Below are positions 37,685 to 56,943 of a stretch of DNA of 58,252 nt, in pieces. Positions within the stretch are counted from its first letter, which is position 1, and each line of letters begins with the position of its first letter. The notes beneath the pieces are model-generated. The model saw only the letters and a program-made list of their open reading frames with translations. It was not told where the DNA came from and ran no database searches. The DNA comes from a virus. Taxonomy: Duplodnaviria; Caudoviricetes. The translations under genes were made by a program, and so were the position numbers. The stretch lies in the IMG/VR virus record IMGVR_UViG_3300044802_000092, positions 1 through 58,252 of that record; one strand, given 5' to 3'.

Positions 37685-37732
37685 CAAACCCCCGCTTCGT
37701 GTGTTAGGTTGTTGATTGTCAATAACTGTCAA
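37681..37732 (+). promoter_or_regulatory. Sigma70-like promoter plus AACTGTCAA box
   Basis: TTGACA-18-TAGGTT; box at 37724-37732 before RBS. Confidence 0.6.
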
Positions 37733-37746
37733 CACGGGAAAACGAC

Positions 37747-38265
37747 ATGGCAATCAAGATACACCACACACAGCGTGCACGGGCAAAGAAGTTCGGCATC
37801 GAGTTGAAGATCGAAGAAAATGAGGTGGTTGCTTACCGCAGAAGCAGGCCGCAGGCTTCGGGCGTCAATGCAAAGGCCGTACTGGAGGAAGCTATTAGTA
37901 TGATACCTTCTGCCGCCGTGGCTAAGCTCATCCGGCCCGCCCCAAAGAAAGAGGGAGAGGCCGAAGAAAACGAAAGCGACGGCGACAGCGGCAAGTCTAT
38001 CATTTCGAACCGGTATAAGGAGAAATACCGGTCCCACGAGATGAGCTGCGGAGACGACCTGTCAAATGCGATGGCGGAGCGGTTCACGGTTTTGGACTCT
38101 GAAGCCGGAGAAAGGCGGGTCGACCGGGCGGCGCTGCAGAGGTTTGCAGAAGCCAACGACATCTGGAAACCAGGCTATGTCCGCCTCAATTCCGGCCAGC
38201 TGAGGATGACGATTGGAAATCGGGTGCGCGGTTTGATGCGTAAAGACCTTGAAGTCAAGTGGTAG
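37747..38265 (+). CDS. Hypothetical protein (paralogous C-terminal motif with 40346-40693)
   Basis: YxxLNSGQLRMTIGNRVRG motif. Confidence 0.75.
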   Translation: MAIKIHHTQRARAKKFGIELKIEENEVVAYRRSRPQASGVNAKAVLEEAISMIPSAAVAKLIRPAPKKEGEAEENESDGDSGKSIISNRYKEKYRSHEMSCGDDLSNAMAERFTVLDSEAGERRVDRAALQRFAEANDIWKPGYVRLNSGQLRMTIGNRVRGLMRKDLEVKW

Positions 38266-38346
38266 TGGCTTGGGGCACGTTGCACCAAGCTTTGAGGGGG
38301 AGGGGACAGGACGTTCCTTCCCCCTCAGTTTTAAGGGAAGGTTGGC

Positions 38347-39444
38347 ATGCAGTACGCAGCAGGCAAGGTTATTCAGGGCAAAAAGTGGCGAAAGACCATG
38401 TCCGGCATGGGCGATAGGTGGGTGGAACCCTTCGCCGGGGGACTGGGGGCATATCAACAAATAGCGCCGTCGTACGGGCGCGCTTTGATTTCCGACCTTT
38501 CGCCCGTTATACTAATGTGGGAGGCGGTGAGGAACGGGTGGCGGCCGGATGTAAGCACTCCTTTGACCAAAGAGTCCCACGCCGTTTACAAGCAGATCGC
38601 ATTCGGGGATGACCCGACACCTCAAGCGGTTTATGCTGTACACACTGGAAGTTTTAGGGGCAGCGCTACTGGAAGCTGGAGCCCGTCCGGCCCCCGGAGG
38701 GGAAGCAATTCCGGGTTGGCTAGACTGGAGGCGGTTGCGGATGTATTGCGCTCCGTGCCCACCGAAATCCGCCAGTGTGACTACAAAGATACACTATCTG
38801 ACTGTGGGCAGGGGGATGTAGTCTATTTGGACCCCCCATATTCTGCTTTAAATTATTGGATTAGGCCGCCGCTCTGTTCAGGCTTTGACGTTAACGAGAT
38901 GTTAAATATGGCTGAGGCCGCTGTGCTCCGGGGGGCGGTTGTGTTCATCAGCCACTACAACAATGAACTGGATACCAATAAGTGGCGGGCGGTTGAGTTA
39001 CACCTAGACCAGAGCCCCATGTTTGACGGGCAGAACCTTTCGGCCAAGCGCATTAACGAGTATTTGTACGTGGACATCCGCACCTTTTACCGGTTTGATT
39101 TTCGAGGCGACGATTCCCGCGTGAAAACGAACCGCCGGGCGGCGCAAACCTCTGTTAGACAAGATTTGTTGGCCCTCACCGGCGGGCGGTGTGAGGCCAC
39201 GGGGGAACTGTATCCCAAGTACCAGTTGGATTTGGTACACGGGCCGGGGTTTGAGTTTGTTAAAATGGGGGATTCCGATCCGGACTACTGTTATCTTGTA
39301 AACAAACTATTCCACGCAGCGCTGGACGCCCCGGAATCAGGAGTCACAATGTTGGACGGGATGTGGGTTGTACCAGAATGTTTTCGAGATCAAGAATGGG
39401 CGAAGAATACTCACGGAATGCGGGCGAAACGGTGCCGGAAATAG
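38347..39444 (+). CDS. DNA adenine methyltransferase (Dam/D12-like) fused to HNH-like domain
   Basis: YxxGK, VEPFAGG motif I, VYLDPPY motif IV; C-terminal RCEATG...LDLVH...LFHAALD. Confidence 0.75.
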   Translation: MQYAAGKVIQGKKWRKTMSGMGDRWVEPFAGGLGAYQQIAPSYGRALISDLSPVILMWEAVRNGWRPDVSTPLTKESHAVYKQIAFGDDPTPQAVYAVHTGSFRGSATGSWSPSGPRRGSNSGLARLEAVADVLRSVPTEIRQCDYKDTLSDCGQGDVVYLDPPYSALNYWIRPPLCSGFDVNEMLNMAEAAVLRGAVVFISHYNNELDTNKWRAVELHLDQSPMFDGQNLSAKRINEYLYVDIRTFYRFDFRGDDSRVKTNRRAAQTSVRQDLLALTGGRCEATGELYPKYQLDLVHGPGFEFVKMGDSDPDYCYLVNKLFHAALDAPESGVTMLDGMWVVPECFRDQEWAKNTHGMRAKRCRK

Positions 39445-39566
39445 CTGAAACATTCGAGTAATACCCAGAGAATATTCGGGGAACGTAATTGTGTTTCCCG
39501 TTTTCCTTTCGGTTTCAGGCGGAGAAATCAAAAGGTCCTTCAACCCTCCGTCAACTGAGGTTCCAA

Positions 39567-40268
39567 ATGCGTTCTTGGGCAGTGGCGATTTTCCTGTCGG
39601 TCTTGGGCGGAACTAGTTTCCCCGCTCGCGCCGACTACAGACCGAGCTGGACAGAACCCGCACCGAAAACTCATAAAAAGCACCGCACACACAAGGTTGC
39701 CCGGCACAGCCGCAAAAAGCACCGCACACATAAGGCCACCCGGCACAGCCATAAAAAGCACCGCAGGTCTCGCGGGCGGCACGTTTCCTCTGCCCCCTAC
39801 TCCCACGTTCGTTCCCCTCAAGTTCCGCCCCCCTCCGGCGGCATGGTGACTATACCGACCGTGGCGGGGCGAATTACCGTTGCGCGCAGCCAGGCTCCCC
39901 ATTGGCAGGCCCTGATTGCGGACCTTGCCGCCGCAGGCTATCGCCCGCACCGTCTTGGCTGCTATGCTTCGGGTGGCCATGTGACCTATTCCCGCCATTA
40001 TGTGGGTGCGGCATGCGATTTTGATGGTTCTCTTTCTCGCAGCGCCTTCATGCGGAGCCAGACCGCCCATCGCATTATCGTCGCCCACGGTTTTCGCAAC
40101 GGTTGCAGCTTTGCCGTTCACGGGGTGCGCGATTGTGGCCACGTCGACGACGGGCGCGCCGGGCACCGGCACAACTGGTACACTCTCGGAATAAGAATGC
40201 CTCGCTTTGGCCACCGGCGGCGCGGCGTGCCTGATACCGGAATGGGGCTGGGAATGTGGCCCTTTTAG
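39567..40268 (+). CDS. Secreted peptidase M15-like protein with His/Lys-rich linker
   Basis: Signal peptide MRSWAVAIFLSVLGGTSFPARA; SRHYVGAACDF and DCGHV Zn-ligand motifs. Confidence 0.7.
   Translation: MRSWAVAIFLSVLGGTSFPARADYRPSWTEPAPKTHKKHRTHKVARHSRKKHRTHKATRHSHKKHRRSRGRHVSSAPYSHVRSPQVPPPSGGMVTIPTVAGRITVARSQAPHWQALIADLAAAGYRPHRLGCYASGGHVTYSRHYVGAACDFDGSLSRSAFMRSQTAHRIIVAHGFRNGCSFAVHGVRDCGHVDDGRAGHRHNWYTLGIRMPRFGHRRRGVPDTGMGLGMWPF
39672..39765. repeat. 39-bp imperfect tandem repeat (HKKHRTHKxxRHS)
   Basis: AAAAAGCACCGCAC recurs at 39-bp spacing. Confidence 0.8.
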
Positions 40269-40280
40269 GTTGTGTATTCC

Positions 40281-40320
40281 AGCCCGTGCCCTTGACGCCG
40301 GGCACGGGCTGTGTTTTTTT
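40281..40320 (+). terminator. Intrinsic terminator
   Basis: AGCCCGTGCCC/GGGCACGGGCT stem followed by T7. Confidence 0.75.
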
Positions 40321-40345
40321 GTATTAACACTCACAGGAGGTCCCC

Positions 40346-40693
40346 ATGACCAGCGAAGATTCTACATCCAGCACCATCATCGCCGATAAATATAGAGGCA
40401 ACTACCAGGCAGTCAAGTTCGCAAAGGGCGGCAAAAACTACACTTCCCGTATCTCTAGCGATTCCGTTGCCTACGGCCTGCTTGGGGCCGACGACGGGGA
40501 ATTGAGGGATGTGCTGGAAGAGAACGGTGCCATCGGGCAAATCGAAGGCAAGACATATCCGAATCAGGGCATGTTTCGCATGGCCGCCGGGGCAATTCTG
40601 CGCGGAAAACTTCGGCGTGGCGAGTCCATTAAGATCAAGGGCAAGATCGTCAAGACCCTCGACCAGCAAGTGAAGTCCCCGTTCATCGACTAA
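40346..40693 (+). CDS. Hypothetical protein (paralog-like of 37747-38265)
   Basis: AGGAGG RBS; YPNQGMFRMAAGAILRG. Confidence 0.75.
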   Translation: MTSEDSTSSTIIADKYRGNYQAVKFAKGGKNYTSRISSDSVAYGLLGADDGELRDVLEENGAIGQIEGKTYPNQGMFRMAAGAILRGKLRRGESIKIKGKIVKTLDQQVKSPFID

Positions 40694-40725
40694 GTTTCGT
40701 TCGATCTGCCGGTTGAATGAAATTA

Positions 40726-40775
40726 GGGCCGCTGGAATATACAGGTTTCGCCTGTTCCAGCGGCCTCTATATATT
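40726..40775 (+). terminator. Terminator-like hairpin
   Basis: GGCCGCTGGAA/TTCCAGCGGCC with inner ACAGG/CCTGT, then AT-rich tail. Confidence 0.55.
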
Positions 40776-40780
40776 TGGGC

Positions 40781-40809
40781 TTGACGGCCGGACGCCGGTG
40801 TGGTAGAGT
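40781..40809 (+). promoter_or_regulatory. Sigma70-like promoter
   Basis: TTGACG-17 nt (ending TGTGG)-TAGAGT. Confidence 0.6.
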
Positions 40810-40815
40810 GTCCTT

Positions 40816-41127
40816 AAGGTCAGGGAGGCACGGATAGAGCCCCAGTCCAAGAAGCCGACCCTGACCGGCATATCGATTTTCGTGTTAGGGATTTCCTTGA
40901 ACACGAAAAGGTGTGGACCTGAGCTTCCTTGTTCCCTCAGGTCCACACTTCCCGTTTTCCGGTGCGGTGTTTTGACAGTTGACACCGCACAAACCGCCGG
41001 GCCAAGTATAGGCGCAGGCCCGGCGGCACTTATAGTTTGGCTGGCCCCGTATTCGGTCCCCCCGCTCGGAGCCAGTCTCAGGGCAGCTAGGTCTCTCGCG
41101 CCCCCGTGCCTCGGCCTAGCTGCCCGC
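40816..41127 (+). ncRNA. Candidate seven-hairpin structured RNA / long leader
   Basis: Seven consecutive 8-13 bp stems starting at the predicted TSS; no credible ORF. Confidence 0.65.
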
Positions 41128-41148
41128 CCCCTTGATAGGACAGTTTGC

Positions 41149-41478
41149 GTGCCCATCGTGTATGTCCCCCACCCTGTAAAAAACGACATCAGCGCGGCCA
41201 AGCTGTGGGGCTCTCTAGTTTTCATAAATAAGGGGTACGTTTACCCGGATGCAATAGATGATATAACCGATTCCATAGCCAGCGAGGTTTTTGACAACCT
41301 CGCAAAAGCCGCAAATTCTTTTACCCCCTCAGATTACCTGCTCATTGCGGGCGACCACCTCCAGATCGTTCAGTTTAGCGCCTTGTTGGGTGCCCGGTTT
41401 CCCTCCTTTTGGGCACTTCGGTACTTGCCCCACGTATCCGCGTACATGTCAGTTAGGATTCACACCGTTTCCAGATAA
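41149..41478 (+). CDS. Conserved phage hypothetical protein
   Basis: GTG start, VYVP...DISAAKLWG...DYLLIAGD. Confidence 0.7.
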   Translation: MPIVYVPHPVKNDISAAKLWGSLVFINKGYVYPDAIDDITDSIASEVFDNLAKAANSFTPSDYLLIAGDHLQIVQFSALLGARFPSFWALRYLPHVSAYMSVRIHTVSR

Positions 41479-41494
41479 ACAACAGGGTTGCGTC

Positions 41495-41523
41495 TTGACA
41501 GCCCTGTCGGGCTGTGCTACGGT
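41495..41523 (+). promoter_or_regulatory. Sigma70-like promoter
   Basis: TTGACA-17 nt (ending TGTGC)-TACGGT. Confidence 0.55.
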
Positions 41524-41567
41524 AAGGGTTAAGAGAGTCTTAACGGCGGCAAGTAAGGAGTACGGCG

Positions 41568-42125
41568 ATGGCAAAAAAACCCTCTACTCTGATAGATTTC
41601 AACACTTTACCCCAAAGTTTATTCGAGCGAAATAATCCCACCAAAAACATAGCGGCCGAACTCCTAGAACTGTCTAGACACCTTCAAGTTCTGCGCGCTC
41701 ACATGTTTGAGGCTGCCCGGTCAGGCTCCAACTCGTTAGCCCGGTCTTTCGTGACGCTCCATCAACTTAACGAAAACATGCAACTTCTTGTTAAGCAATT
41801 CAACAAGTTGATGGAACACTACAAAACCGTAGCCGTTCCGGACGTGCTTGACATGGCGGGGGTGACAAACGTGCCGTTGGCCGAGGGCTTCCGGGTGGGA
41901 ACTTCCAGCCGGTTGTGGGCTTCATTTCAGGTCGAAAATCAAGATGAAGGCTTTGAGTGGCTACGGCGCAATGGGATGGGAGACCTTATCAAGTTAACCG
42001 TAAACACTCAAACCTTATCCAGTGCAATCTCGCAACACCTAGACGAATATAGTGAGGAGCCGCCCCCTGAACTAATAAAAGTAACAGTCACGCAAAACAC
42101 TTCAGTAACTCGTACAAAGAAATAG
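41568..42125 (+). CDS. Conserved phage replication-module protein
   Basis: FEWLRxNGMGDLIKxTVNxQTLS motif; AAGGAG RBS. Confidence 0.75.
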   Translation: MAKKPSTLIDFNTLPQSLFERNNPTKNIAAELLELSRHLQVLRAHMFEAARSGSNSLARSFVTLHQLNENMQLLVKQFNKLMEHYKTVAVPDVLDMAGVTNVPLAEGFRVGTSSRLWASFQVENQDEGFEWLRRNGMGDLIKLTVNTQTLSSAISQHLDEYSEEPPPELIKVTVTQNTSVTRTKK

Positions 42126-42134
42126 GCAAACCCC

Positions 42135-43016
42135 ATGGCAAAGTCCCCCACAGCAGCTGCCCGCAGCACTCCAAACCTTCCCGCCACAACGGCCCCCTCA
42201 CACCTGGCACTGACCGACGAGGTGCCCGAGTTCATGTCAGGTGATGCGGGAAAAGGCCTGGAATCGGTCGGGGCTGAAGACGTTTCAGTTCCTCGTATCA
42301 AACTGATGCAAGGAACCTCCCCAGAACTGACGACGTTTGATGACTTACGGCAGGGCGATTTCTGGCATACGGCTAACGAAGTGAACCTGGGCCAAAAGTT
42401 CCTTGCCGTGCCCGTATACCGCGACAAGCGTTACATCCTGTGGCGGCCTCAAGATTCCGGCGGGGGCATCCTGGCCCGCGCGGACGACGGCAAAACTTGG
42501 ATTCCGGCCAACACTTCATTTGAAGTAAAGTTGGATGCAAAACAGGGAGGAAAAACTGTTACTTGGACCACCGGGGACACCGTGGAAAACTCCGGGCTAG
42601 CCCTGTGGGGAACCTCCGACCCTGAAGACTCTTCGTCCCCGCCCGCCGCCACTCTCATGTACAACTTCGTTCTGGTCTTTCCAGAGCACCCTGAGCTGGC
42701 CCCGGCAATTCTGACATTTCAGCGCTCAACCGTGGGGGTTGCTCGAAAGTTCTTAGGTACCCTCAAAACCCGCAACCGCCCGATCTTTGGTCAGGTTTAC
42801 GAGTTTTGCTCAGTAGGAGCGACCAACAAAGACGGGAAGCCGTTTAGGTCGATCGTTCCGCGCGCTGCGGGCCTGATTGCGGATAAGGCCCTTTACGACA
42901 GGTATAAGGGGATGTACGAAACCTTCGCAAAATCGGCACTTCAAATCCGTGACGTCGAAAGCTTGCAGGTGGAAGCCGAAGAAGAAACCGCAACCGTTGG
43001 CCGGCCGGAGTATTGA
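42135..43016 (+). CDS. Putative ssDNA-binding / replication accessory protein
   Basis: GLExVxxEDVxVPRIKLMQxxSPE; acidic C-terminal tail; position upstream of DNA polymerase. Confidence 0.6.
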   Translation: MAKSPTAAARSTPNLPATTAPSHLALTDEVPEFMSGDAGKGLESVGAEDVSVPRIKLMQGTSPELTTFDDLRQGDFWHTANEVNLGQKFLAVPVYRDKRYILWRPQDSGGGILARADDGKTWIPANTSFEVKLDAKQGGKTVTWTTGDTVENSGLALWGTSDPEDSSSPPAATLMYNFVLVFPEHPELAPAILTFQRSTVGVARKFLGTLKTRNRPIFGQVYEFCSVGATNKDGKPFRSIVPRAAGLIADKALYDRYKGMYETFAKSALQIRDVESLQVEAEEETATVGRPEY

Positions 43017-43366
43017 GCATGACAAACGAACCCGTTCCAACGCAAGGCGCGGCGCTGGCCGCACTAGAAGAACTGAAGCAAGTGGTGTTGGACCCGTTAA
43101 ACACCCTTACTTCAGCGCAGAAAGAACCGGGTTCCCGCCCGCCTTTGAAACTGCGGGTAGGGCCGGGGGTCCACCCTCTCTTTGCCAATACTTTTTCCGT
43201 CTGGAAAAGGGATGGAGTGCTGCGGTTGCTCGCTTGCGATAGCGCAAGCGAGGGATTAACCTCACCGGTCCACACCTTTTTGGTAATGACAGAGGCTGAC
43301 GCCGTGGCCCTATGCCGGTTAATCCTGAACCTGCCAGAGGAAAAGACAGATGGCTCTGAAAGATGA
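43013..43366 (+). CDS. Hypothetical protein
   Basis: Overlapping in-operon ORF. Confidence 0.6.
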   Translation: MSMTNEPVPTQGAALAALEELKQVVLDPLNTLTSAQKEPGSRPPLKLRVGPGVHPLFANTFSVWKRDGVLRLLACDSASEGLTSPVHTFLVMTEADAVALCRLILNLPEEKTDGSER

Positions 43367-43559
43367 TGAAATAAAAAAGCTAGAAGCAGTGCTGCTGGCG
43401 TTGGACGGCGTGGAACTCAAAGGCCGGTCCGAACAATTCGTGACAGACCAGCGCGCGCGCTACGGGCAATACGGGACAAATATGCTTCTTTCGCTGAAAC
43501 AGTGGGAGTGGCTGAAGAACCTCTACGAAGAACACGTAGGGAAGTGGGACGAAATCTAA
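43350..43559 (+). CDS. Hypothetical protein
   Basis: FVxDQxxR...LSxKQWxWL; in-operon. Confidence 0.7.
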   Translation: MALKDDEIKKLEAVLLALDGVELKGRSEQFVTDQRARYGQYGTNMLLSLKQWEWLKNLYEEHVGKWDEI

Positions 43560-43574
43560 CTAAACAGGTGAAAA

Positions 43575-43817
43575 ATGGTTGAAAAGGTTGATCTAGAGAA
43601 GTTCTCCACGTATGCCGGGTTTCTCGGATATCTTCGCCTTGCGCGGGTAAACTTGGTTGTGGCGGGTGAACGGGCAGTACGGCTGAAAACGGTGGATGTG
43701 CCGGAGCCTTACCGGCACATCACAGCTGGCCGCGACATCGAAGAACTGATCACTGAGCTTGACGATTTACTGAGGGAAATAGACCCTCTGATTGAGCTTA
43801 TGCAAGAAAGAAGGTAG
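43575..43817 (+). CDS. Hypothetical protein
   Basis: AGGTG RBS; in-operon. Confidence 0.6.
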   Translation: MVEKVDLEKFSTYAGFLGYLRLARVNLVVAGERAVRLKTVDVPEPYRHITAGRDIEELITELDDLLREIDPLIELMQERR

Positions 43818-43819
43818 CA

Positions 43820-45670
43820 ATGTCAAGCCGGTTTGACTACAGTGATGTGTTAGTTGAGGTGTTTAACCGGCTTGACCGGGCGTCTGAGGTGGTGGTTGAC
43901 GTTGAGACTTCTGGGTTAAGCCCATTGCGCAATCACATCGTGGGGTATGCGCTGTGTTTCGGCCCCGCCCCTCAAGATTCCTACTACTTGCCCGTGCGGC
44001 ATGCGCCGGGCGGCAACTTTACCGATATCCCCGCCCCCCAAACCGCAGATGGGTGGGATGGTACAACCCCGCTGTGGGAAAGACAGCTGCTGGACAGACT
44101 AAACCGGCAAAACCTCAGGGTTGTGGGCCACAACTTGAATTTCGACTTGAAGATGATGTGGCGGGCTGGATACCAGTGTCTGCGCTCTAGATATGAAGAC
44201 ACACAGCTCAACGCGGCTCTGCTCAACGAATGGCAGGGCAAGTTTTCCCTAAAGGCCTGCGCTGGCATAGCGGGGGTACAGGCAAAACTATCAGACGAAA
44301 TCTCGGCCCACATCCAAGCCCAGTTCCCCGACGAAAATCTCCCTGAGAAGGGAATAATGGCCCACTACTGGCGGCTAAACGGGGCGGACCCCGTGGCGGT
44401 CGACTACGCAAGGGGAGACGGTACGACCACGTGGCAGCTAGCTCAGTGGCAACGGGAAAGACTCGAAAAAGAGCAGCTATTAAAGGTTTGGGATATTGAG
44501 TGCCGGTTGATTCCCGTGCTAGTTCGACAAACCATGTTCGGGGTGCGGATCGACGAGGAGCGGCTGCACGGGCTGCAGACGGAGATAACTGCCAAGATCG
44601 ACGGGTTGATGTCAAAGTTTCCGGAAGGGTTCAACGTGCGGTCCCCCGGATGTGTCCGGGCCTGGTGTGAAGCCCACGGCAACACGGATTGGCCCCTTAC
44701 CCCCAAGAAACAACAGCCTTCGTTTCCGGAGAGCTGGCTAGAAACCCATGATGCGGGCCGGGCGATAGTAGAACTCCGGCAGATGCAGACTTTAATGAGC
44801 AGTTTCATCCGGCCGATGATGGAAACCCACCTGTTTAAAGGTAGAGTCCACACAACGTTCAATCAACTGAGAGGGGACGACTACGGCACTATTACAGGAA
44901 GGTTGTCGTCCAGTGACCCCAACCTTCAACAAATTCCGCACCATTCCAACCCGGCTTTGGGAGCGCTTTTCCGTTCCATATTCGTCCCCGACGAGGGGAA
45001 GATGTGGGCGGAGCGGGACTACAGCCAGGCTGAGCCCAGGCTACTTGCTTATTATTCCCGGTGTGCCGTTTTGTTAGACGATTATCGAAACAACCCGAAG
45101 GCCGACGCTCACGCCGCTGTAGCGCGGGCCACGGGCCTGGACAGGCAAACCGGTAAGCGCGTCAATCAAACGCTGCTCACCGGGGGAGGAAAGGGCGTTC
45201 TAACAACCAAATACAAGATAACCCCGGAAGACGCAAAAAAGGTGTGGAACGACTATTTCGAACGGCTCCCCGAAATTAAAACGCTCCAAACCGAATCCCG
45301 GCTAAAAATGCGTCGGCGGGGTTACGTGCGCACCCTGCTCGGCCGGAAGTGCCGGTTGCTTGACTTCAACAAAGCTTACGTGTCCATGAACCGGTTGTTA
45401 CAGGGGGGCAACGCGGACATAACCAAGTACAAGATGGTTCAGGTTGACGAGTATCTGGCCAGCGAGGGGCGGCCAATCGAGGTACTGCTCAGCATTCATG
45501 ACTCCCTCAACTTCCAGTTTTCTGAAGAATATAGACACATTTACGAGCGGTGCGGCGAGATCATGGCCGACTTCTCCTCCGGCCAGTTGATCGAGCTGGA
45601 TGTACCGATGAAAACCGATGCGGGTGAGGGGAAGAACTGGGCGGAAGCCACCTACGGAGAAAAGAAGTAA
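43820..45670 (+). CDS. Family A DNA polymerase (3'-5' exonuclease plus polymerase)
   Basis: VDVETSG, HNLNFD, TGRLSSSDPNLQQIP, DYSQAEPR, QGGNADI, SIHDS. Confidence 0.93.
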   Translation: MSSRFDYSDVLVEVFNRLDRASEVVVDVETSGLSPLRNHIVGYALCFGPAPQDSYYLPVRHAPGGNFTDIPAPQTADGWDGTTPLWERQLLDRLNRQNLRVVGHNLNFDLKMMWRAGYQCLRSRYEDTQLNAALLNEWQGKFSLKACAGIAGVQAKLSDEISAHIQAQFPDENLPEKGIMAHYWRLNGADPVAVDYARGDGTTTWQLAQWQRERLEKEQLLKVWDIECRLIPVLVRQTMFGVRIDEERLHGLQTEITAKIDGLMSKFPEGFNVRSPGCVRAWCEAHGNTDWPLTPKKQQPSFPESWLETHDAGRAIVELRQMQTLMSSFIRPMMETHLFKGRVHTTFNQLRGDDYGTITGRLSSSDPNLQQIPHHSNPALGALFRSIFVPDEGKMWAERDYSQAEPRLLAYYSRCAVLLDDYRNNPKADAHAAVARATGLDRQTGKRVNQTLLTGGGKGVLTTKYKITPEDAKKVWNDYFERLPEIKTLQTESRLKMRRRGYVRTLLGRKCRLLDFNKAYVSMNRLLQGGNADITKYKMVQVDEYLASEGRPIEVLLSIHDSLNFQFSEEYRHIYERCGEIMADFSSGQLIELDVPMKTDAGEGKNWAEATYGEKK

Positions 45671-45674
45671 TCCC

Positions 45675-46172
45675 ATGCTCGAAACAGACCTGCAGTCGGC
45701 CGTTGTAAAGTCCGTAATAACCGCAGGCGGGTCCGCACACAAGTTGAGCAACCGGTTTATTACCGGAGTGGCGGACCTGTTAATCAAGATTCCGGAGTTT
45801 GAGGCCTTCTGCCTGGAGGTGAAGTTTGGGCGGTACACCCCACCCCTCAGGGTTAAGGACGTGTCTGTGCCCCTCAAGACCCCCCAGTGGCGGTTCTTGA
45901 GGAATTACTGGCGGGCGGGCATGCCTACGGGGGTGTTGAGCTTTGCGGGACATAACTGTCAAAGCATGTGGGTTACGGTCCTGTGGGCCAACGACTTCCG
46001 CCGTTTTCGGACGGCGGACACGGAACCAGATTGGCTGTTTAAGATTCCGGCAGAGCGGTACGTCAAACTAGACCCCCGAACCCCGGAGTTCGTCGCTCTT
46101 CTCAAACAATCCCTCACCGCCCTTAATCAAACAACAGGAGGCCTGCACAATGTCCGTGATGGAGCTGATTGA
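45675..46172 (+). CDS. PD-(D/E)xK nuclease (VRR-NUC / Holliday junction resolvase-like)
   Basis: ETDLQ...GVADLL...LEVK...Q. Confidence 0.7.
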   Translation: MLETDLQSAVVKSVITAGGSAHKLSNRFITGVADLLIKIPEFEAFCLEVKFGRYTPPLRVKDVSVPLKTPQWRFLRNYWRAGMPTGVLSFAGHNCQSMWVTVLWANDFRRFRTADTEPDWLFKIPAERYVKLDPRTPEFVALLKQSLTALNQTTGGLHNVRDGAD

Positions 46173-46494
46173 AGAAAAAGCTAAAACACACGGGGACTTC
46201 ACCGACCAAGCTCAAATGGCGCAGGGCCTGAAGTCTGTCTTACATGCCTCCCGCCGTTGGGACGGCATGACCGCTGTCCAGCGGGAGGCGGCAGAAATGA
46301 TTTTACACAAGCTGGCGCGGGCATGCAGTGGGGACCCCTGGGCGCGGGACCATTGGCAGGACATCGCGGGGTACGCTACGATGGTGGCCGACCGCAGTCC
46401 ATGCGCGCACGCCGCAGAGATATACGGCGGCAGCGGCGGCGGCACAGCGGTGTGTCAGGGATGCGCCTCTCAGGGTGATGGAGTAAAGTTATGA
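46150..46494 (+). CDS. DUF6378-like all-alpha protein (possible dNTP pyrophosphohydrolase)
   Basis: THGDF, EAxEMIxHKLAR, GDP...DHWxDIAGYA. Confidence 0.75.
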   Translation: MSVMELIEEKAKTHGDFTDQAQMAQGLKSVLHASRRWDGMTAVQREAAEMILHKLARACSGDPWARDHWQDIAGYATMVADRSPCAHAAEIYGGSGGGTAVCQGCASQGDGVKL

Positions 46495-47564
46495 GTGTGT
46501 TAACTGACCTGTGTATCCCCGGTCGAGCATCGTTTATCGTCGGCGGGCAGTTTGGCAGTGAAGGAAAAGGGGCGGCGGCGGCGTTTTTGGCAACACGCCT
46601 AGCCACAGCCGGGATGAAATTCAACCTGCACACCACTAACGCCGGAGCGCAGGCTGGACATACTAGCATTCATATGGGGAAAACCCGAGTCACCAACTTC
46701 TTGCCTACCGCAGCAATTGTTGCGGCGGATCACGGTCCAGAGTTCCTGTCAACAATCTATCTCAACGCCGGGGCAATCATCAACCCAGACGCGTTGCTGG
46801 CAGAAGCGAGGGAGTTTATACCTCAATTTATGGATGGGAAGTTTTTTATTCACCCCAACGCCGCCGTTATTACCGAGGATTGTGTTGCGGTCGAAAGGAG
46901 TTCTACGTCTCCTGCAACAGCCATTTCTTCAACCCGCAAGGGGGTGGGTGAGGCCCTGGTCCGCAAGGTTTCCCGATGTGGGAATATTGCCAGCAATGTC
47001 GAAAGTTTGAAGCCGTTCATAGCAAACATAGACCTTAATCGGCAGCTGCGGGCCTGGACCTCCGTTTTAATTGAGGTCCCCCAGGGTCTGGGTTTGAGCC
47101 TAGATTCCCAGTTCTACCCCTACTGCACCAGCAGAAACTGTACGGTAGAAAAGGGGATGGACGACGCCCACATTCACCCCCACTTTTACGGGAACACCAT
47201 GCTCGTTCTTCGAACTTACCCCATCCGAGTTGGTAGTTTGGAAGGGCACTCTTCGGGAGGTTGTTACCCAGATCAGCGCGAAATATCCTGGGAGGAACTC
47301 GGTAGAAAGCCGGAATTGACTACAGTGACAAAGCGACAGCGGCGGGTCTTCACGTTTTCTATGACACAGGCCCGCGAGGCGATACGGCGGCTGCGCCCCA
47401 CCGTGATTTTTCTGACTTTTTGCGACTATCTGAAGGACAAGGTGGAGGCATATCGAATGGCTAAATCCTTGGCCCTTATGATTCAAACCGAGGGGCTGCC
47501 CGAGGCGGAAATCTATGGGGCATGGGGGCCAACAACCACGGACGTAACTGGGCTTGCTGTGTAA
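46491..47564 (+). CDS. purZ: Adenylosuccinate-synthetase homolog, PurZ0-like (2-aminoadenine biosynthesis)
   Basis: GGQFGSEGKG (Ser in place of the PurA catalytic Asp), QAGHT, YPYCTSR, TYPIRVG, ELTTVTKRxRR, LTFCD. Confidence 0.8.
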   Translation: MSVLTDLCIPGRASFIVGGQFGSEGKGAAAAFLATRLATAGMKFNLHTTNAGAQAGHTSIHMGKTRVTNFLPTAAIVAADHGPEFLSTIYLNAGAIINPDALLAEAREFIPQFMDGKFFIHPNAAVITEDCVAVERSSTSPATAISSTRKGVGEALVRKVSRCGNIASNVESLKPFIANIDLNRQLRAWTSVLIEVPQGLGLSLDSQFYPYCTSRNCTVEKGMDDAHIHPHFYGNTMLVLRTYPIRVGSLEGHSSGGCYPDQREISWEELGRKPELTTVTKRQRRVFTFSMTQAREAIRRLRPTVIFLTFCDYLKDKVEAYRMAKSLALMIQTEGLPEAEIYGAWGPTTTDVTGLAV

Positions 47565-47567
47565 GAC

Positions 47568-47617
47568 TTGACAAGAACGGGCTTGCGTGGTAGGGTGGAC
47601 GCTGTCTAAACTGTCAA
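47568..47617 (+). promoter_or_regulatory. Sigma70-like promoter plus AACTGTCAA box
   Basis: TTGACA-17-TAGGGT; box at 47609-47617. Confidence 0.65.
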
Positions 47618-47629
47618 CATAGGTGAACC

Positions 47630-47956
47630 ATGTCAGACATAGGGTACAATGTTCCCACCTTTACCATAACGACCGAAGTTCCCGAAAGTGTTATACATTA
47701 TCGGGAAGGACTACAAAAGTTCTTTGCCGGGATGGCCTTCAAGTTGCACGTAAATGCACACAAGCCTCCGCCGAAGATCGAAGAGCTTCCCACCCTGATG
47801 CTGCGCCTAATGGGCGAGGTGGGGGAGTTGATCGAACAGCTGATGAAAGACGACCGGAGCCCGAACGCCGCACATGAGGCGTTCGACACCGCCAATTTCG
47901 CGTTCTTGGTCTATTTGGCCCTGTTGACGCGGGATAACCCAGTCAAACTTCCATAA
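47630..47956 (+). CDS. MazG-like dNTP pyrophosphohydrolase, copy 1
   Basis: KLxVNxHK, LMGEVGEL, EAFDTANFA (ExxE...ExxD). Confidence 0.7.
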   Translation: MSDIGYNVPTFTITTEVPESVIHYREGLQKFFAGMAFKLHVNAHKPPPKIEELPTLMLRLMGEVGELIEQLMKDDRSPNAAHEAFDTANFAFLVYLALLTRDNPVKLP

Positions 47957-48024
47957 CTCTTTGGTGGGGGCGACGTTTCGCCCCTTCCCCTTTGTGTCGC
48001 TGATTTAACCAACGGAGTAGTTCT

Positions 48025-48381
48025 GTGTTGAATAAGACCCTCTCCCGGCCCTTAGCCGTCAACCTGCCTGTTTCAATCGAACACTACCGGCCCGAATTGG
48101 AGTCGTTTATAGCAGGCATGTTTCACAAACTTGCCGTGAACAGCCATAAGGATGCCCCCGCAAAACCCCAAATTCCAGAGTTGATGTTTCGAATGATGGG
48201 GGAAATCGGTGAACTGGTACAGCAAATACTTGCTGACAAATTTGATCCTAACTCCCTTCAAGAAGCCTTCGACGTTTCAAACTTCGCTTTCCTCACATAT
48301 TTGGCCCTGTTGAGGGACGGCGTAAAAGACCTCCGGACAACAGACCTCTTGCCAAACCTCCAAGCCAAGACGAGCACCTGA
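48025..48381 (+). CDS. MazG-like dNTP pyrophosphohydrolase, copy 2
   Basis: KLAVNSHK, MMGEIGEL, EAFDVSNFAFLTYLALL; clear paralog of previous gene. Confidence 0.7.
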   Translation: MLNKTLSRPLAVNLPVSIEHYRPELESFIAGMFHKLAVNSHKDAPAKPQIPELMFRMMGEIGELVQQILADKFDPNSLQEAFDVSNFAFLTYLALLRDGVKDLRTTDLLPNLQAKTST

Positions 48382-52102: not shown

Positions 52103-52103
52103 C

Positions 52104-52424: not shown

Positions 52425-53962
52425 TGTCACGGCCCGTGTGGAGTCCCCAGCAGCTAGCAATCTTTGACTGGGTAAAGAAAGGTAGGGGCAACGCCTTTGT
52501 GGAGGCGGTGGCGGGGGCGGGAAAGACCACCACGTTGGTAGAGGTGTGTGCGTTGTTGCAAGGGCAAAGCGCGGCTTTTGCGGCGTTCAACAAAAACATT
52601 GCTGACGAAATCGGTGAACGCGTGCGGGCGCGGGGATGTTCAAGGGTGTTCACTGGCACTTTTCATAAGTTTGGGTTGGCCATTTGGCGCGGCACCTATC
52701 CGAAAGTCCAAGCCGGACCGGAAGCGGCCAAAGAAAAATCAAAGCTAGTCAACACCAAACTAAACACCCCCAAAAATCTTGTGTCCGTACTTGACAACCT
52801 AGTGGGCCAGGCCAAGCAGCGCGGCATAGGGACTCCGGGGCTGCCAATTGAGGATGCCGCATTGTGGCTGGCCATAATCGAGCATTTCGGGATAGATGAG
52901 GACCTTCCCGCATCTGTAAACGTAGACACCGTAATAGAAAGGGCCATGGCCGCCCTCAGACTGCACGTTGAAATGAAAGAATTGTTAGATTTCAACGATA
53001 TGGTATATATGCCCGTGCATGACGATATGCGGGGATTTCAAAACGATTGGCTGATGGTCGACGAGTGTCAAGACCTTAACGGATCGCGGCGCATGCTAGC
53101 TCGTCAGATGTTGCGTCCGGGGGGCCGGGCGATATTCGTTGGAGATAGATTTCAGGCGATTTTTGGGTTCAACGGAGCCGACGCCGACGCGGTCAACCAG
53201 CTTACTGCAGATTTTAATTGCGCCCGGCTGCCTCTCACCATTACTTACCGCTGCCCGAAAAAGGTCGTGGAGCAGGCCCAGGCGTACGTCCCTCACATTG
53301 AGGCCGCCAAATCCGCCCCTGAGGGAAAGGTGTCAGTTATCTCTCAGGCTGAACTATATAAGACTCAATTCGTCCCTGGGGAAGACGCCGTTCTTTGCCG
53401 CAATACGCGGCCCCTGGTGCGATTGGCTTATATTCTCATCGGGCGAGGGGTGCCCGCTTATGTTGAGGGAAGGGACATTGGTAAAGGTCTGCTAAAACTT
53501 GTCGCTAGGTTCGACCAGCCCTCATCCCTCAACGCAATGCTGGTCCGTCTAAGTGCATATTTAAGCCAGGAAACGGTAAAATTGCGGGCCGCAAATAAAG
53601 AAATGCAGGCCGCAGCGTTGGAAGACCGCGTGGAAACCCTTGAGGCAATCGCAGAAGAGTGTACCACAGTCGGGGGCCTCAAGGATCGCATTACCTCTTT
53701 GTTTGAGGATGGAGACCGGGCTTTGGGCCAGCGGCCGGTGCTTTCGACCGTACACAAGGCAAAGGGCCGCGAATGGTCGCGGGTGTTCGTGTTAGGTTAC
53801 GATCTATATATGCCGAGTTGTTACGCAACTAAAGACTGGGAAAAAGAGCAGGAAAACAACCTCGTATATGTAGCGTACACACGAGCTAAACGGGAACTGG
53901 TACTGGTAGAGGGGGAGAGGAAAAATGGTCACGGGGAAAATCTACGGAAAGTCAACCATTAA
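52424..53962 (+). CDS. UvrD/Rep-family SF1 helicase
   Basis: AVAGAGKTT, VDECQD, VGDxxQAIFGFxGA, STVHKAKGRE, YVAYTRA. Confidence 0.9.
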   Translation: MSRPVWSPQQLAIFDWVKKGRGNAFVEAVAGAGKTTTLVEVCALLQGQSAAFAAFNKNIADEIGERVRARGCSRVFTGTFHKFGLAIWRGTYPKVQAGPEAAKEKSKLVNTKLNTPKNLVSVLDNLVGQAKQRGIGTPGLPIEDAALWLAIIEHFGIDEDLPASVNVDTVIERAMAALRLHVEMKELLDFNDMVYMPVHDDMRGFQNDWLMVDECQDLNGSRRMLARQMLRPGGRAIFVGDRFQAIFGFNGADADAVNQLTADFNCARLPLTITYRCPKKVVEQAQAYVPHIEAAKSAPEGKVSVISQAELYKTQFVPGEDAVLCRNTRPLVRLAYILIGRGVPAYVEGRDIGKGLLKLVARFDQPSSLNAMLVRLSAYLSQETVKLRAANKEMQAAALEDRVETLEAIAEECTTVGGLKDRITSLFEDGDRALGQRPVLSTVHKAKGREWSRVFVLGYDLYMPSCYATKDWEKEQENNLVYVAYTRAKRELVLVEGERKNGHGENLRKVNH

Positions 53963-54140
53963 ATTGGTGCAGCGATGGAGGCGAAACGACGAAATATACG
54001 GTGAGTATCTGAGGGGCCGCACCCATAGGCAGTTGGCGGCGAAGTTTCGACTTTCGCGAAGCCGCATCGTCCAAATCATACAGGGGGAAGAATTAAATGG
54101 AAGAGGCACCCAAACTGAGCCTGGACGGGTACCTGACTGA
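53925..54140 (+). CDS. Small HTH protein (Mor-like)
   Basis: RNDEI...GRTHRQLAAKFRLSRSRIVQII. Confidence 0.65.
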   Translation: MVTGKIYGKSTIKLVQRWRRNDEIYGEYLRGRTHRQLAAKFRLSRSRIVQIIQGEELNGRGTQTEPGRVPD

Positions 54141-54652: not shown

Positions 54653-54677
54653 CAAACCCGGTCAAGTATGATAAAAT
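54647..54677 (+). promoter_or_regulatory. Strong early promoter with overlapping inverted repeat
   Basis: TTGACA-17-TAAAAT; TACTTGAC-N7-GTCAAGTA palindrome over the -35. Confidence 0.75.
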
Positions 54678-54781
54678 TAAAACATAGATAGGGCGGCGAG
54701 GGGAGCGGGGCAGGAGCCCACAAACCAGACCGGGAAGCCCAGGGTGAAACAGTCGAGCTGACCTCACCAGAAAACAACCAA

Positions 54782-54828
54782 TGTCGTGGGATGGGCGTCC
54801 CACCTGATGAGCCGAAAACGGCGAAACA
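54782..54828 (+). ncRNA. Hammerhead ribozyme (type III topology)
   Basis: GUC, stem I GUGGGAU/GUCCCAC, CUGAUGA, stem II GCCG-AAAA-CGGC, GAAA, 3-bp stem III. Confidence 0.75.
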
Positions 54829-54852
54829 AACTGTCAAACATAGGAAACTAAC

Positions 54853-55041
54853 ATGACTAACTACATCGTCACAATGCGCTTCCAGTTCCCCGCGTGGGAC
54901 GAAAAAGACGGTATCGAATTCGAGGTGTCGGCTGCCAATAAGCGTGAGGCTAATGCAAAAGGCCGCCGCCAAGCGAAAGATGCCGGCCATGCGAGAGCAA
55001 ACCGCGGCCTCTACTGGTTCAAAGCAACTGAGGCGCGCTAA
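54853..55041 (+). CDS. Small early protein
   Basis: ATAGGA RBS; MTNYIVTMRFQFPAWDE. Confidence 0.7.
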   Translation: MTNYIVTMRFQFPAWDEKDGIEFEVSAANKREANAKGRRQAKDAGHARANRGLYWFKATEAR

Positions 55042-55219
55042 GCGCCTCACCCCAAGAAAGGCAATGCGAGAGCAAACCGCGGCCTCTACTGGTTCAAAGC
55101 AACTGAGGCGCGCTAAGCGCCTCACCCCAAGAAAGGCAATGCGAGAGCAAACCGCGGCCTCTACTGGTTCAAAGCAACCGAGGCGCGCTAAGCGCCTCAC
55201 CCCAAGAAAGGCAATGCGA
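54989..55219. repeat. 75-bp tandem triplication
   Basis: Units start at 54989, 55064, 55139; one SNP in unit 3; bounded by ATGCGA. Confidence 0.92.
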
Positions 55220-55253
55220 ATGTACAAATGGATTGGATCTCACCGAAAAACAC

Positions 55254-55298
55254 TGTAGTAGGATGTATGTCCTACCTGATGAGCTGAAAATAGAAAGT
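55254..55298 (+). ncRNA. Degenerate hammerhead ribozyme copy
   Basis: GUA, stem I GUAGGAU/GUCCUAC, CUGAUGA; stem II and stem III damaged. Confidence 0.5.
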
Positions 55299-55320
55299 AA
55301 ACTGTCAAAAGGAACTGAAC

Positions 55321-55692
55321 GTGAAAAAGTGCCTCACCCAAACAACTGCCGATACGGCTCCCGTCCACCTGGCGATTTGGTACTTCGAGCGCGGCGTCAA
55401 GATCTATAAAATTTCGCCCTGCGTGTGTGGCGACCTTTCCGGCGTGCGCGGCGATCTTACCGGCGTGAGCGGCTATCTTTCCGGCGTGCGCGGCGACCTT
55501 ACCGGCGTGCGCGGCGACCTTACCGGCGTGTATGGCGATCTTACCGGCGTGAGCGGCGACCTTACCGGCGTGTATGGCGATCTTACCGGCGTGAGCGGCT
55601 ATCTTTCCGGCGTGCGCGGCGATTTGGATGACGCCGAAATAACCAACGCCGATCGCGAACTTGGTGTTAACATTGCTGACCTAATTCAGTAA
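55321..55692 (+). CDS. Heptapeptide-repeat protein (GDLTGVx)
   Basis: About nine 21-bp repeats GGCGA(C/T)CTTACCGGCGTG-NNN. Confidence 0.75.
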   Translation: MKKCLTQTTADTAPVHLAIWYFERGVKIYKISPCVCGDLSGVRGDLTGVSGYLSGVRGDLTGVRGDLTGVYGDLTGVSGDLTGVYGDLTGVSGYLSGVRGDLDDAEITNADRELGVNIADLIQ

Positions 55693-55761
55693 TAAATTTG
55701 AGGGGCTTCGGCCCCTCATTAGTCCATTTTTAGGACAAACCGTTAAACATAGGAGAATAAC

Positions 55762-56043
55762 ATGACTAAGACTATCGTTACTGCGGTTATCGTCACTGAA
55801 GACAGCACTGTTGGCTTCTCCACCTGCGTTGCGGAAGACGGATCGCTGGAATAGGTAATCGACGGTGCAATTGAAACGGCCATTGAGCAATACGAAGAGG
55901 GAACGAATTGCTCCGTTCCCTCCTTGCATCGGGTGATTGTTCACGTCGATACGGTACCCCCGTTAAAGCACCGTATCACTAGTGTCCACCATGTTTTACC
56001 TGAGCAGGACAACGACGAAGTAATTACAACGACCTTGTCATAG
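55762..56043 (+). pseudogene. ORF interrupted by in-frame TAG
   Basis: AGGAG RBS, ATG 55762, TAG at 55852 (codon 31), frame open to 56043. Confidence 0.6.
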
Positions 56044-56129
56044 CACATTAGGGGATTCGGGGCAAATCCCGAATCCCCCCCTTAGTCCCTTTGTAAAAAT
56101 GGACATTTAGTAAAACATAGGGGAATAAC

Positions 56130-56381
56130 ATGCGGAAGTACCTAACCCTCAACGTTCAGCTTACGGCTTCGGTTAATGATTCGGTCACCAGTCTGGATGC
56201 TGTCAACGCGTTCGTTAATTGGCTCAAATACTCGCTTGTTCAGGGTCAACCGCTGTCCCGGGACGACCGCATTGATCTTATATTCGAGAAGCTGGGTCAG
56301 ATTAAGCTGGAGGACCTGACATTTTATCCTTGGCCCGAAGCCTCGCTCCCGCCTAAACCGGAAGATCTCACCGGAGTCTAA
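56130..56381 (+). CDS. Hypothetical early protein
   Basis: AGGGG RBS after cassette element. Confidence 0.7.
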   Translation: MRKYLTLNVQLTASVNDSVTSLDAVNAFVNWLKYSLVQGQPLSRDDRIDLIFEKLGQIKLEDLTFYPWPEASLPPKPEDLTGV

Positions 56382-56458
56382 ATATTGCAAGGGAGGATGG
56401 GTCGCCCCATCCTCCTGTTAGTCCCTTTTCGGACAGACTGTCAACAAAGGAGAACGTG

Positions 56459-56620
56459 ATGTTCAGATGTTGCGTAGCCACGTTACTAATACTGGTTTTC
56501 ACGCTTTCGGCCCGGGCCAACTATGGCAGCCGGTGCGGATACTGGCGGGCCACTTCTTCGCAGGTGTGGCACCCGCTGTGTGGGGGAAAACCGGTCTGGT
56601 CTCCCGCAGGTCTCAAATAA
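56459..56620 (+). CDS. Small secreted Cys-containing peptide (53 aa), not in ORF track
   Basis: AAGGAG RBS; MFRCCVATLLILVFTLSARA-NYGSRCGYWRATSSQVWHPLCGGKPVWSPAGLK. Confidence 0.6.
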   Translation: MFRCCVATLLILVFTLSARANYGSRCGYWRATSSQVWHPLCGGKPVWSPAGLK

Positions 56621-56668
56621 ATTTGAGGGGCCGAAGCCCCTCGTTTGCTTAAACTAAAGGAGGTAATA

Positions 56669-56872
56669 ATGTTTAAGCTTGGTTGTGCAATATTGACACT
56701 AGGACTGCTATTGGGGGCGGCCCCAGCGGTGGCACAGTACCCGGACGTTTGTCCTAACCACTGTGCCCGTAAGTGCCTGCAGTGGGTGCAGACAGAGGCT
56801 TACGGCGCCCGGTGTGTGCGAGTTGCCTGTATCTGCTCGCCCCGCCCCTGGCGGCAGAATCCCCCATATTGA
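56669..56872 (+). CDS. Secreted six-cysteine defensin-like peptide
   Basis: AAGGAGGT RBS; signal peptide ending AVA; C-x3-CxxxC-x12-C-x4-CxC. Confidence 0.7.
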   Translation: MFKLGCAILTLGLLLGAAPAVAQYPDVCPNHCARKCLQWVQTEAYGARCVRVACICSPRPWRQNPPY

Positions 56873-56943
56873 GGTCTAATTTGAGGGGGTTTCGACCCCC
56901 TCGCTTGGTCCATTTTTGGACAAACTGTCAAAAGGAGATATCA

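Follow-up and report, generated by a model that had tools for sequence, protein, structure and literature searches.

A box beside several ribosome-binding sites of a peat-metagenome phage has its exact complement in a hairpin loop of a structured leader: a possible antisense regulon

The 58,252-bp phage record IMGVR_UViG_3300044802_000092 (IMG/VR; "the window" means this whole stretch of DNA) carries a nine-letter box, AACTGTCAA, next to the Shine-Dalgarno (SD) region of several genes, and the exact complement of this box forms the entire loop of a hairpin in a predicted structured leader on the same strand. Our favored reading, which was drawn from the DNA sequence and to which we assign a probability of about 0.4, is that the leader starting at a promoter at 40781 (P40781) may pair in trans with the box, mainly via this loop, and may lower translation of the genes that carry the box, much like the c4 RNA of phages P1 and P7.

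Results

The box is over-represented and anchored to start codons

An initial annotation of this DNA had proposed that the box be counted on both strands against expectation. AACTGTCAA occurred seven times in the window (six plus-strand copies and one minus-strand copy), compared with 0.28 expected, and none of 100 dinucleotide shuffles reached seven in this post hoc comparison. The plus-strand copies started at 37724, 45954, 47609, 54829, 55300, and 56923, which places all six within 37,724-56,931, and the minus-strand copy was located at 40972-40980. A backwards-read control gave identical counts because the 9-mer is a mirror repeat (it reads the same backwards); it is not a dyad.

Two variants accompanied the exact copies, GACTGTCAA at 56436 and AACCGTTAA, with two mismatches, at 55738, and both were present where the initial annotation had placed them. 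Its coordinates for five exact copies immediately 5' of an SD region were also right. All seven of these leader boxes (five exact copies and two variants) were on the plus strand, which upholds the claim of a fixed orientation, and all ended 12 to 15 nt 5' of an ATG or GTG. A purine-rich SD was located between the box and the start codon, and the box-to-SD gap was 2 to 6 nt in seven of seven copies. The columns of the 9-mer were conserved in six or seven of the seven sites and the preceding A in six, compared with three or four for most flanking columns. The exact 9-mer was kept at 37724 and 47609, although the flanks at these two sites were unrelated to the cassettes found at the right end of the window (described below). 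The only feature shared by all of the leader copies was the constant spacing to the start codon, which argues for a role in RNA or translation rather than a role in promoter function. Taken as sequence evidence, these findings support the box as an orientation-fixed, start-codon-anchored element that would fit an RNA or translation role.

The remaining plus-strand copy, at 45954, was located inside a coding sequence, as had been noted previously. It is probably coding-driven or a product of chance, and it needs no special explanation because the N-C residues that it encodes are conserved in a relative. A literature search for the 9-mer yielded just unrelated primer-type matches among those listed.

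One of the box genes, the gene starting at 47630, is the first of two paralogous small genes (52% identical) that adjoin a PurZ-like gene. The initial annotation had listed both as targets and had called them a MazG-like pair. The two are paralogs and the gene at 47630 has a box, but only this first gene has one, and the MazG likeness was not recovered by Pfam or PDB sequence search. The translation start region of gene 47630 is also tandemly duplicated (47612-47652; 2.2 copies of a 19-nt unit starting TGTCAACATAGGTGAAC), so that the gene contains, just past its start, a second CATAGGG-type SD and an ATG that is out of frame. Another of the box genes, starting at 56459, encodes a small protein with a hydrophobic N terminus that resembles a signal peptide when judged by eye.

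A predicted structured leader carries two complements of the box

The minus-strand copy of the box is part of a hairpin array in the 455-nt gap between the genes at 40346-40693 and 41149-41478. The region from 40810 to 41160 folded at -169.7 kcal/mol (z = -6.77) as a row of hairpins, and none of 100 shuffles was as stable. An Rfam search in E-value mode over the hairpin leader found nothing credible. There was no T-run terminator after the array, which makes the array look like the 5' leader of the downstream gp32-like gene and not like a discrete small RNA. P40781 appears to be a credible promoter for the leader.

As shown in Table 1, the array includes a hairpin (H4) with a 9-nt loop, UUGACAGUU. 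As the initial annotation had stated, the whole of this loop is the exact complement of the box, and the conserved box block has the same length as the loop. The longer, 11-nt pairing that had been described for the boxes at 55300 and 56923 proved to be real as well; it involves TTTTGACA at 40970, and the two extra bases belong to the H4 stem. The adjacent hairpin on the 5' side (H3) has a CU-rich loop that may be anti-SD-like, in which case the order of the two loops would mirror, in antiparallel pairing, the box-then-SD order of the targets.

The same leader contains a second complement (anti-box 2, GACAGTTTG) that matches CAAACTGTC over 9 nt at 54827 and 56921, over 8 nt at 47608 and 55299, and over 9 nt with one G-U pair at 56434. 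Anti-box 2 pairs with the conserved C-A-A preceding the box, which pairing with H4 alone leaves unexplained. The box at 56923 combines 11 nt of complementarity to H4 with 9 nt of complementarity to anti-box 2. Two of the three substitutions in the variant boxes were compatible with wobble pairing; for the variant at 55738, the predicted duplex with the H4 loop was just -3.0 kcal/mol.

Four minus-strand AACTGTC cores were found in the 58-kb window, and two of the four were located inside the 337-nt leader. When the leader was subjected to 20,000 dinucleotide shuffles, at least one anti-box 8-mer appeared in 2.8% of the shuffles and at least two sites appeared in 0.135%. We also surveyed the plus strand from 34,700 to 58,252 for hairpins with a stem of at least 6 bp and a loop of 5 to 14 nt, and compared the loops of the resulting 162 hairpins with 35 start-codon windows. 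H4 was the only hairpin with a loop 7-mer complement in many of the windows (6 of 35). The next best hairpin, which has an anti-SD-like loop inside a coding sequence, had a complement in 3 of 35, whereas 27 hairpins had one and 133 had none. The second anti-box and the uniqueness of H4 among the 162 hairpins indicate that a chance match is unlikely.

Pairing energies were calculated from the opening energy plus short-duplex estimates. The predicted opening energy was 0.05 kcal/mol for the H4 loop and 1.0 to 3.3 kcal/mol for the target boxes, and the predicted duplex energy was -9.9 kcal/mol for 9 nt and -11.7 kcal/mol for 11 nt, values at which pairing would be feasible.

Two other hairpins have loops of a similar kind. 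One of them, at 41282-41303 inside gene 41149, has a UUUGAC loop that, together with its flanks, complements UGUCAAAA of the boxes at 55303 and 56926. The other, a terminator-like hairpin at 40280-40311, has the loop UUGACGCC, which also presents UUGAC.

Table 1. Coordinates of the boxes, their complements, and the associated promoters and ribozyme-like elements
Feature	Position	Strand	Description
Box copy 1, AACTGTCAA	37724..37732	+	About +5 to +13 of the P37681 transcript; 14 nt before ATG 37747 (172-aa protein)
Box copy 2	47609..47617	+	About +6 to +14 of the P47568 transcript; 12 nt before ATG 47630
Box copy 3	54829..54837	+	Abuts the 3' end of the hammerhead candidate; 15 nt before ATG 54853
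Box copy 4	55300..55308	+	Abuts the degenerate hammerhead-like paralog; 12 nt before GTG 55321; 11-nt H4 complementarity
Box copy 5	56923..56931	+	After a GC hairpin and a GTCC/GGAC mini-hairpin; 12 nt before ATG 56944
Variant box GACTGTCAA	56436..56444	+	Altered base G-U compatible with both anti-boxes; 14 nt before ATG 56459
Variant box AACCGTTAA	55738..55746	+	One mismatch and one wobble against the H4 loop; 15 nt before ATG 55762
Exact copy in coding sequence 45618-46172	45954..45962	+	Encodes N-C-Q; N-C conserved in relative G001
Structured leader, about 335 nt, seven hairpins	40816..41148	+	No T-run terminator; runs into the GTG of the Pam3 gp32-like gene (41149-41478)
Hairpin 3 (H3)	40909..40951	+	Stem of about 15 bp; 12-nt CU-rich loop CUUCCUUGUUCC, putatively anti-SD-like
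Hairpin 4 (H4)	40962..40990	+	10-bp stem (40962-40971 with 40981-40990); 9-nt loop 40972-40980, UUGACAGUU
Anti-box 2, GACAGTTTG	41139..41147	+	Complements CAAACTGTC; between an SD-like AGGA and the GTG of gene 41149
P40781	40781..40809	+	TTGACG-N17-TAGAGT, TG before the -10; class member, ahead of the hairpin leader
P37681	37681..37710	+	TTGACA-N18-TAGGTT
P47568	47568..47596	+	TTGACA-N17-TAGGGT
P54649	54649..54677	+	TTGACA-N17-TAAAAT
Type III hammerhead candidate	54782..54828	+	In the P54649 leader; predicted cut after GUC at 54785; RF00008, 34.2 bits, E = 6.5e-5
Degenerate hammerhead paralog	55254..55299	+	About 470 nt downstream of the candidate; read from the sequence

Promoters and DNA-level explanations for the box

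We defined a sigma70-type promoter class with an extended -10 element (TTGAC[AG], 14 to 16 nt, TGnTAnnnT). This class had nine matches in the window, compared with a mean of 0.1 (maximum of 1) in 200 shuffles. Seven members were on the plus strand, each ahead of a gene block (35048, 37681, 40781, 41495, 47568, 52104, and 54649), and a minus-strand member was located at 26585. The -35 element was often extended to ACTTGACAA, which occurs five times. A generic promoter scan showed no enrichment over shuffles (9 versus 11.2), and it flagged only P40781 and P54649 among the class promoters above. The boxes at 37724 and 47609 were located about 12 to 13 nt past the -10 elements of P37681 and P47568, and the box at 54829 was located about 150 nt into the P54649 transcript. 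According to the initial annotation, the leader RNA would serve as an early-to-middle switch. P40781 belongs to the same class as the promoters of the putative targets, however, so nothing points to a temporal switch.

The initial annotation had also raised the possibility that the box is a reverse-facing -35 hexamer, which did not hold because no -10 partner was located behind any box. Specifically, the pattern TTGAC[AG]-N16-18-TAnnnT on the minus strand matched only at 26585 and at none of the boxes. Two additional candidates were rejected. A forward promoter with TTAGTC as its -35 element would have a spacing of 15 to 16 nt and a start site that falls within the SD, and the consensus of a boxA/nut-like antitermination element does not match.

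A second DNA-level explanation is that a phage DNA-binding protein uses the box as its operator on double-stranded DNA. Such an operator could work in either orientation, and the inverted copies at 40972 and 41139 would then be covered as well. We consider this improbable. At P37681 and P47568 the box is found at about +5 to +14, a classic operator position, and a small helix-turn-helix (HTH) protein is encoded at 53925-54140. The GACA-N3-TGTC dyad that had been suggested as a protein operator is indeed present in four of the seven leader copies, and the variant at 56436 forms a perfect GACAG-A-CTGTC. The dyad is missing from the other three, however, and the 9-mer itself is a mirror repeat. 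Moreover, four or five copies have no nearby promoter (they follow hairpins or lie 150 to 600 nt past P54649), and the HTH protein has a weak syntenic homolog in G001, a relative that itself has no box. An operator would also leave the constant distance to the start codon unexplained, and the exact placement of an inverted copy in a hairpin loop would be a coincidence.

A candidate hammerhead and its degenerate paralog adjoin two of the boxes

The hammerhead candidate and its degenerate paralog (Table 1) each end exactly where a box begins (54829 and 55300, respectively). In the cmscan alignment, the core CUGAUGA...GAAA and the GUC triplet of the candidate were all present, along with a 6-bp stem I and a 4-bp stem II. 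The score was below the Rfam gathering score of 48.5 bits because stem III has just 3 bp and is open. In the degenerate copy, a compensatory change from G-C to A-T preserved stem I, but both stem II and the GAAA of the core were disrupted, and Rfam made no call at E values up to 10.

According to Perreault et al. (2011; PMC3088659), one proposed function of hammerheads in phage intergenic regions or near start codons is to cleave long transcripts into mRNAs of gene length, and haloviruses HF1 and HF2 have a similar hammerhead 13 nt upstream of a start codon. The candidate described here resembles these phage hammerheads (RF00008) in its core, its GUC triplet, its stems I and II, and its placement in a phage leader near a start codon; it differs from RF00008 in its score below the gathering cutoff and its short, open stem III. 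Hammerheads are already known in such phage positions, and the element at 54782-54828 is an accessory that adjoins one box copy and is not the box itself.

It is conceivable that the box marks or follows an RNA 5' end or a processing site and that its role is in mRNA processing or stability instead of pairing. Every leader copy is located just past a potential mature 5' end (a transcription start, the hammerhead or its degenerate copy, or a GC hairpin plus mini-hairpin), and the transcript cutting proposed for hammerheads that flank phage genes would suit such a role. On the other hand, the anti-boxes would remain unexplained and we know of no nuclease motif for the box sequence. We view a processing role as highly improbable.

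The box and the loop are absent together from the closest genome compared

Few relatives were found, and the best polymerase homolog was 75% identical (P0002). The closest genome compared, G001 (60,481 bp), has a polymerase that is 68% identical and a syntenic replication module with identities of 30 to 70%, mostly 45 to 70%. G001 has no exact box, and its three AACTGTTAA copies are all inside open reading frames (ORFs). TTGACAGTT and the hairpin array are missing from it as well; one hairpin and a repeat-rich ORF occupy the homologous spot. The G001 homolog of gene 37747 keeps the promoter without the box. The joint absence of box and loop from G001 is compatible with the antisense hypothesis, but it is a single data point and not covariation.

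The G001 record is probably circularly permuted. Its ends (L288-L291) overlap in the repeat-rich ORF (units like KLWAEGDKL) and differ in repeat number, and the break in the record falls exactly at the spot homologous to the hairpin leader of the window.

A metagenome scan with the polymerase alignment yielded 70 loci, a syntenic family with PurZ-like genes and polymerase identities of up to about 58%. Among these 70 loci, the 30 with the most shared genes had no gene-strand box and one minus-strand copy, in L203. When viral contigs were scanned with the same alignment, G001 was the only closer relative, and a scan with the primase alignment again yielded G001. Scans of viral contigs with one protein at a time, either the gp34-like protein or the DNA polymerase, yielded no matches, as did a blastn search of 40001-48000 against the phage collection, and a genome scan for prophage relatives yielded one 27% match only. 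An RNR scan identified 44 loci, none of which was close; the best one shares five window proteins at 24 to 56% identity. Stray copies of the box were found in three of these loci, one each in L150, L158, and L155 (reverse strand). There was no comparable hairpin array at the homologous intergenic spots in L174, L172, and L222, the 14-mer pattern GGACAAACTGTCAA produced only single chance matches among the matches listed, and six relative loci had no Rfam match at gathering level. A conserved leader of a different sequence, (CC)AAAACGCAAACGGAGA, was observed at 5476-7221 of L184 and also in L183, L185, and L246.

Genome context and right-end cassettes

The record is classed as linear and its CheckV completeness is 98%. 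The only two sequencing runs listed as containing this sequence were both of peat-metagenome DNA, and no RNA run was among them; the contigs from both runs showed no variants at the boxes, with one run (X2) lacking cover over most of them. The minus-strand block from 1 to about 34,650 contains the structural genes of a contractile-tailed phage (sheath, baseplate, tape measure, Mu-like portal, head proteins, and terminase). The plus-strand block from 34,725 to 58,252 contains replication and accessory genes, which code for a PrimPol-helicase, a D12-type methylase, Pam3 gp32/33/34-like proteins, and a family A DNA polymerase, followed by a PurZ-like adenylosuccinate synthetase, RNR, SNF2 and UvrD helicases, a Mor-like HTH protein, and then small ORFs. 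The phage is likely virulent. No tRNA was found in the window, and an Rfam search of the window produced nothing at gathering level.

The PurZ-like gene (46491-47564) is found beside the family A polymerase gene (43820-45670) and the duplicated gene for a small helical protein (47630-47956 and 48025-48381), a set that we take to be reminiscent of 2-aminoadenine (Z-genome) phages. The block of gp33/gp34-like, polymerase, PurZ-like, and SNF2 genes is widespread in metagenome and IMG/VR contigs, with identities of 40 to 57% (loci L171-L276).

A 34-bp unit, GTTTCGTCTAGTTCCCTCCGTCTATTCCGGAGGT, is present in 3.5 copies with a 97% match at 34847-34964. These repeats, which start near 34789, are located at the divergence point of the late (minus-strand) and early (plus-strand) blocks of genes, and they could be iterons of an origin or operators. 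At the right end, a 75-bp unit (3.1 copies with a 98% match, 54985-55219) copies the 3' end of ORF 54853 plus its hairpin, and ORF 55321-55692 contains a 21-bp in-frame coding repeat in 9.7 copies (55421-55623). The 75-bp and 21-bp repeats suggest that the accessory region at the right end evolves through duplications.

The boxes at 55738, 56436, and 56923, as well as a decayed cassette at about 56100, are preceded by a GC-rich hairpin, TTAGTCC, and a GTCC/GGAC mini-hairpin. TTAGTC(C/T) was observed 3' of GC-rich intergenic hairpins at 55719-55725, 56082-56088, and 56418-56424 of the window (TTGGTC at 56905-56911), and likewise in the reverse complement of G001, where it is part of the leaders of two ORFs (starts at 15474 and 16991). 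In the window, this motif opens the GTCC/GGAC mini-hairpin, which has a variable loop of 6 to 12 nt.

Discussion

In the mechanism that we tentatively favor, AACUGUCAA, usually after an A, would act at the RNA level, at positions of about -24 to -13 relative to the start codon, in five to seven phage mRNAs that would begin at host-type promoters, follow intergenic hairpins, or follow a hammerhead. The leader RNA made from P40781 would show the exact complement of the box as the full 9-nt loop of H4, a second, overlapping complement, GACAGUUUG, would be available near the 3' end of the same leader, and the adjacent H3 would supply a CU-rich, anti-SD-like loop. Through loop-to-single-strand pairing in trans, the leader would mask the 5' edge of the ribosome-binding region and thereby reduce translation of the box genes. 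We infer that the leader accumulates, that it pairs with the box, and that the outcome is repression, the last from the position of the box alone.

The c4 RNA is cut out of the leader of the operon that c4 controls. In the c4 RNA of P1 and P7, as described in the review PMC12197685, short complementary sequences are probably located in RNA loops, and the targets surround the ribosome-binding site, so that translation is blocked. Similarly, the predicted fold of the leader described here exposes the complementary sequence in an accessible loop, and the target sites are at the ribosome-binding region in seven of seven leader copies. Like c4 of the immI operon, the RNA proposed here would be phage-encoded and trans-acting, and the leader-embedded origin of c4 resembles the position of the anti-box RNA in a 5' leader. 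In contrast, c4 acts on one operon (icd/ant) of a temperate phage. The RNA proposed here would have five to seven targets at dispersed sites, and its phage has no prophage relative that we could find. In addition, c4 has no sequence or structural homology with the hairpin leader.

Bacterial trans-encoded seed small RNAs, including those derived from 5' untranslated regions, are similar in that a single short, accessible seed has matches in several mRNAs, at the SD or close to it. They are different in that their seed is a single-stranded 5' segment, whereas the seed proposed here is the closed loop of one hairpin within a 335-nt leader of multiple hairpins. In addition, the leader has no evident terminator or chaperone-binding module, and all of the targets are phage genes. 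To our knowledge, phage antisense RNAs mostly act on one neighboring gene or on host genes.

In phage T4, the RegA protein binds many phage mRNAs in the region of their translation starts, at an element that these mRNAs share only loosely. The box could likewise be an RNA operator next to the SD for a translational repressor or activator protein, an explanation that we regard as quite unlikely. The positional evidence is the same as that for antisense pairing, the sharply bounded conservation of 9 to 10 nt fits a sequence-specific binder, and several phage proteins have no assigned function. However, no candidate RNA-binding protein, and specifically no RegA homolog, was seen among the phage proteins. 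RegA-type operators resemble the box as a shared element at many phage translation starts, but the complementary loop has no counterpart in the RegA system, and an RNA operator would leave the anti-box copies unexplained.

Several findings weigh against trans antisense control. The net predicted pairing is modest (about -6.6 to -8.8 kcal/mol), and part of anti-box 2 is itself paired (opening energy, 4.3 kcal/mol). TTGAC is present in the loops of 4 of 62 perfect-stem hairpins, and because TTGACA is the -35 hexamer of the phage, its presence in a loop is less surprising and it may be there for another reason. The significance estimates are all post hoc. With no terminator after the hairpins, a discrete small RNA is not evident. 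The right-end copies of the box are located within paralogous intergenic cassettes, so part of the box repetition was inherited. Finally, four distant relatives (L183, L184, L185, and L246) have a different conserved pre-SD box, AAAACGCAAACGGAGA, before three to four consecutive small genes, and its reverse complements were found only within coding sequence and in no hairpin loop. Conserved pre-SD modules can therefore exist in this family without an antisense partner.

These loop-less boxes mean that a purely cis translation module remains a serious rival, even though we judge it to be rather unlikely. The box would then be an unstructured, A/C-rich standby site or enhancer 5' of the SD that was spread with the duplicated cassettes, and the loop match would be coincidental or unrelated. 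The fixed spacing of 12 to 15 nt to the start codons fits a cis module, as do the flanks shared by the right-end copies (the GC hairpin, TTAGTCC, and GTCC/GGAC mini-hairpin). Furthermore, at its 3' side the box blends into (A)CATAGGAG, an extended SD that is found family-wide and is used all through G001. What a cis module fails to explain is the exact complement in the H4 loop together with a second anti-box in the same leader. The 9-mer is also kept exactly at 37724 and 47609 among flanks that bear no relation to the cassettes, which is tighter than a generic enhancer requires.

The antisense proposal can be carried further, although we consider the extended version unlikely. The leader of the conserved gp32-33-34-like operon might be a multi-loop master riboregulator in which H3 and H4 clamp the box plus SD of five to seven mRNAs, anti-box 2 couples translation of the gp32-like gene to the abundance of box mRNAs, and the hammerhead trims the leader of one target, leaving the box of that target close to a defined 5' end. 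If true, this would amount to mRNA-mRNA cross-talk and a translational regulon that is self-contained and made of RNA only, in a phage that has a PurZ-like gene and is likely virulent.

If the cis explanation is right, the box would still be useful as a defined, portable translation-initiation module of this family of phages with PurZ-like genes. If antisense pairing is right, what is new would be a loop-seed antisense RNA that is embedded in an mRNA leader and addresses several dispersed phage translation starts, in effect a compact translational regulon made of RNA only. It would also provide a search rule for uncultivated phages, namely, to look for a pre-SD box that is over-represented and has its complement in a loop.

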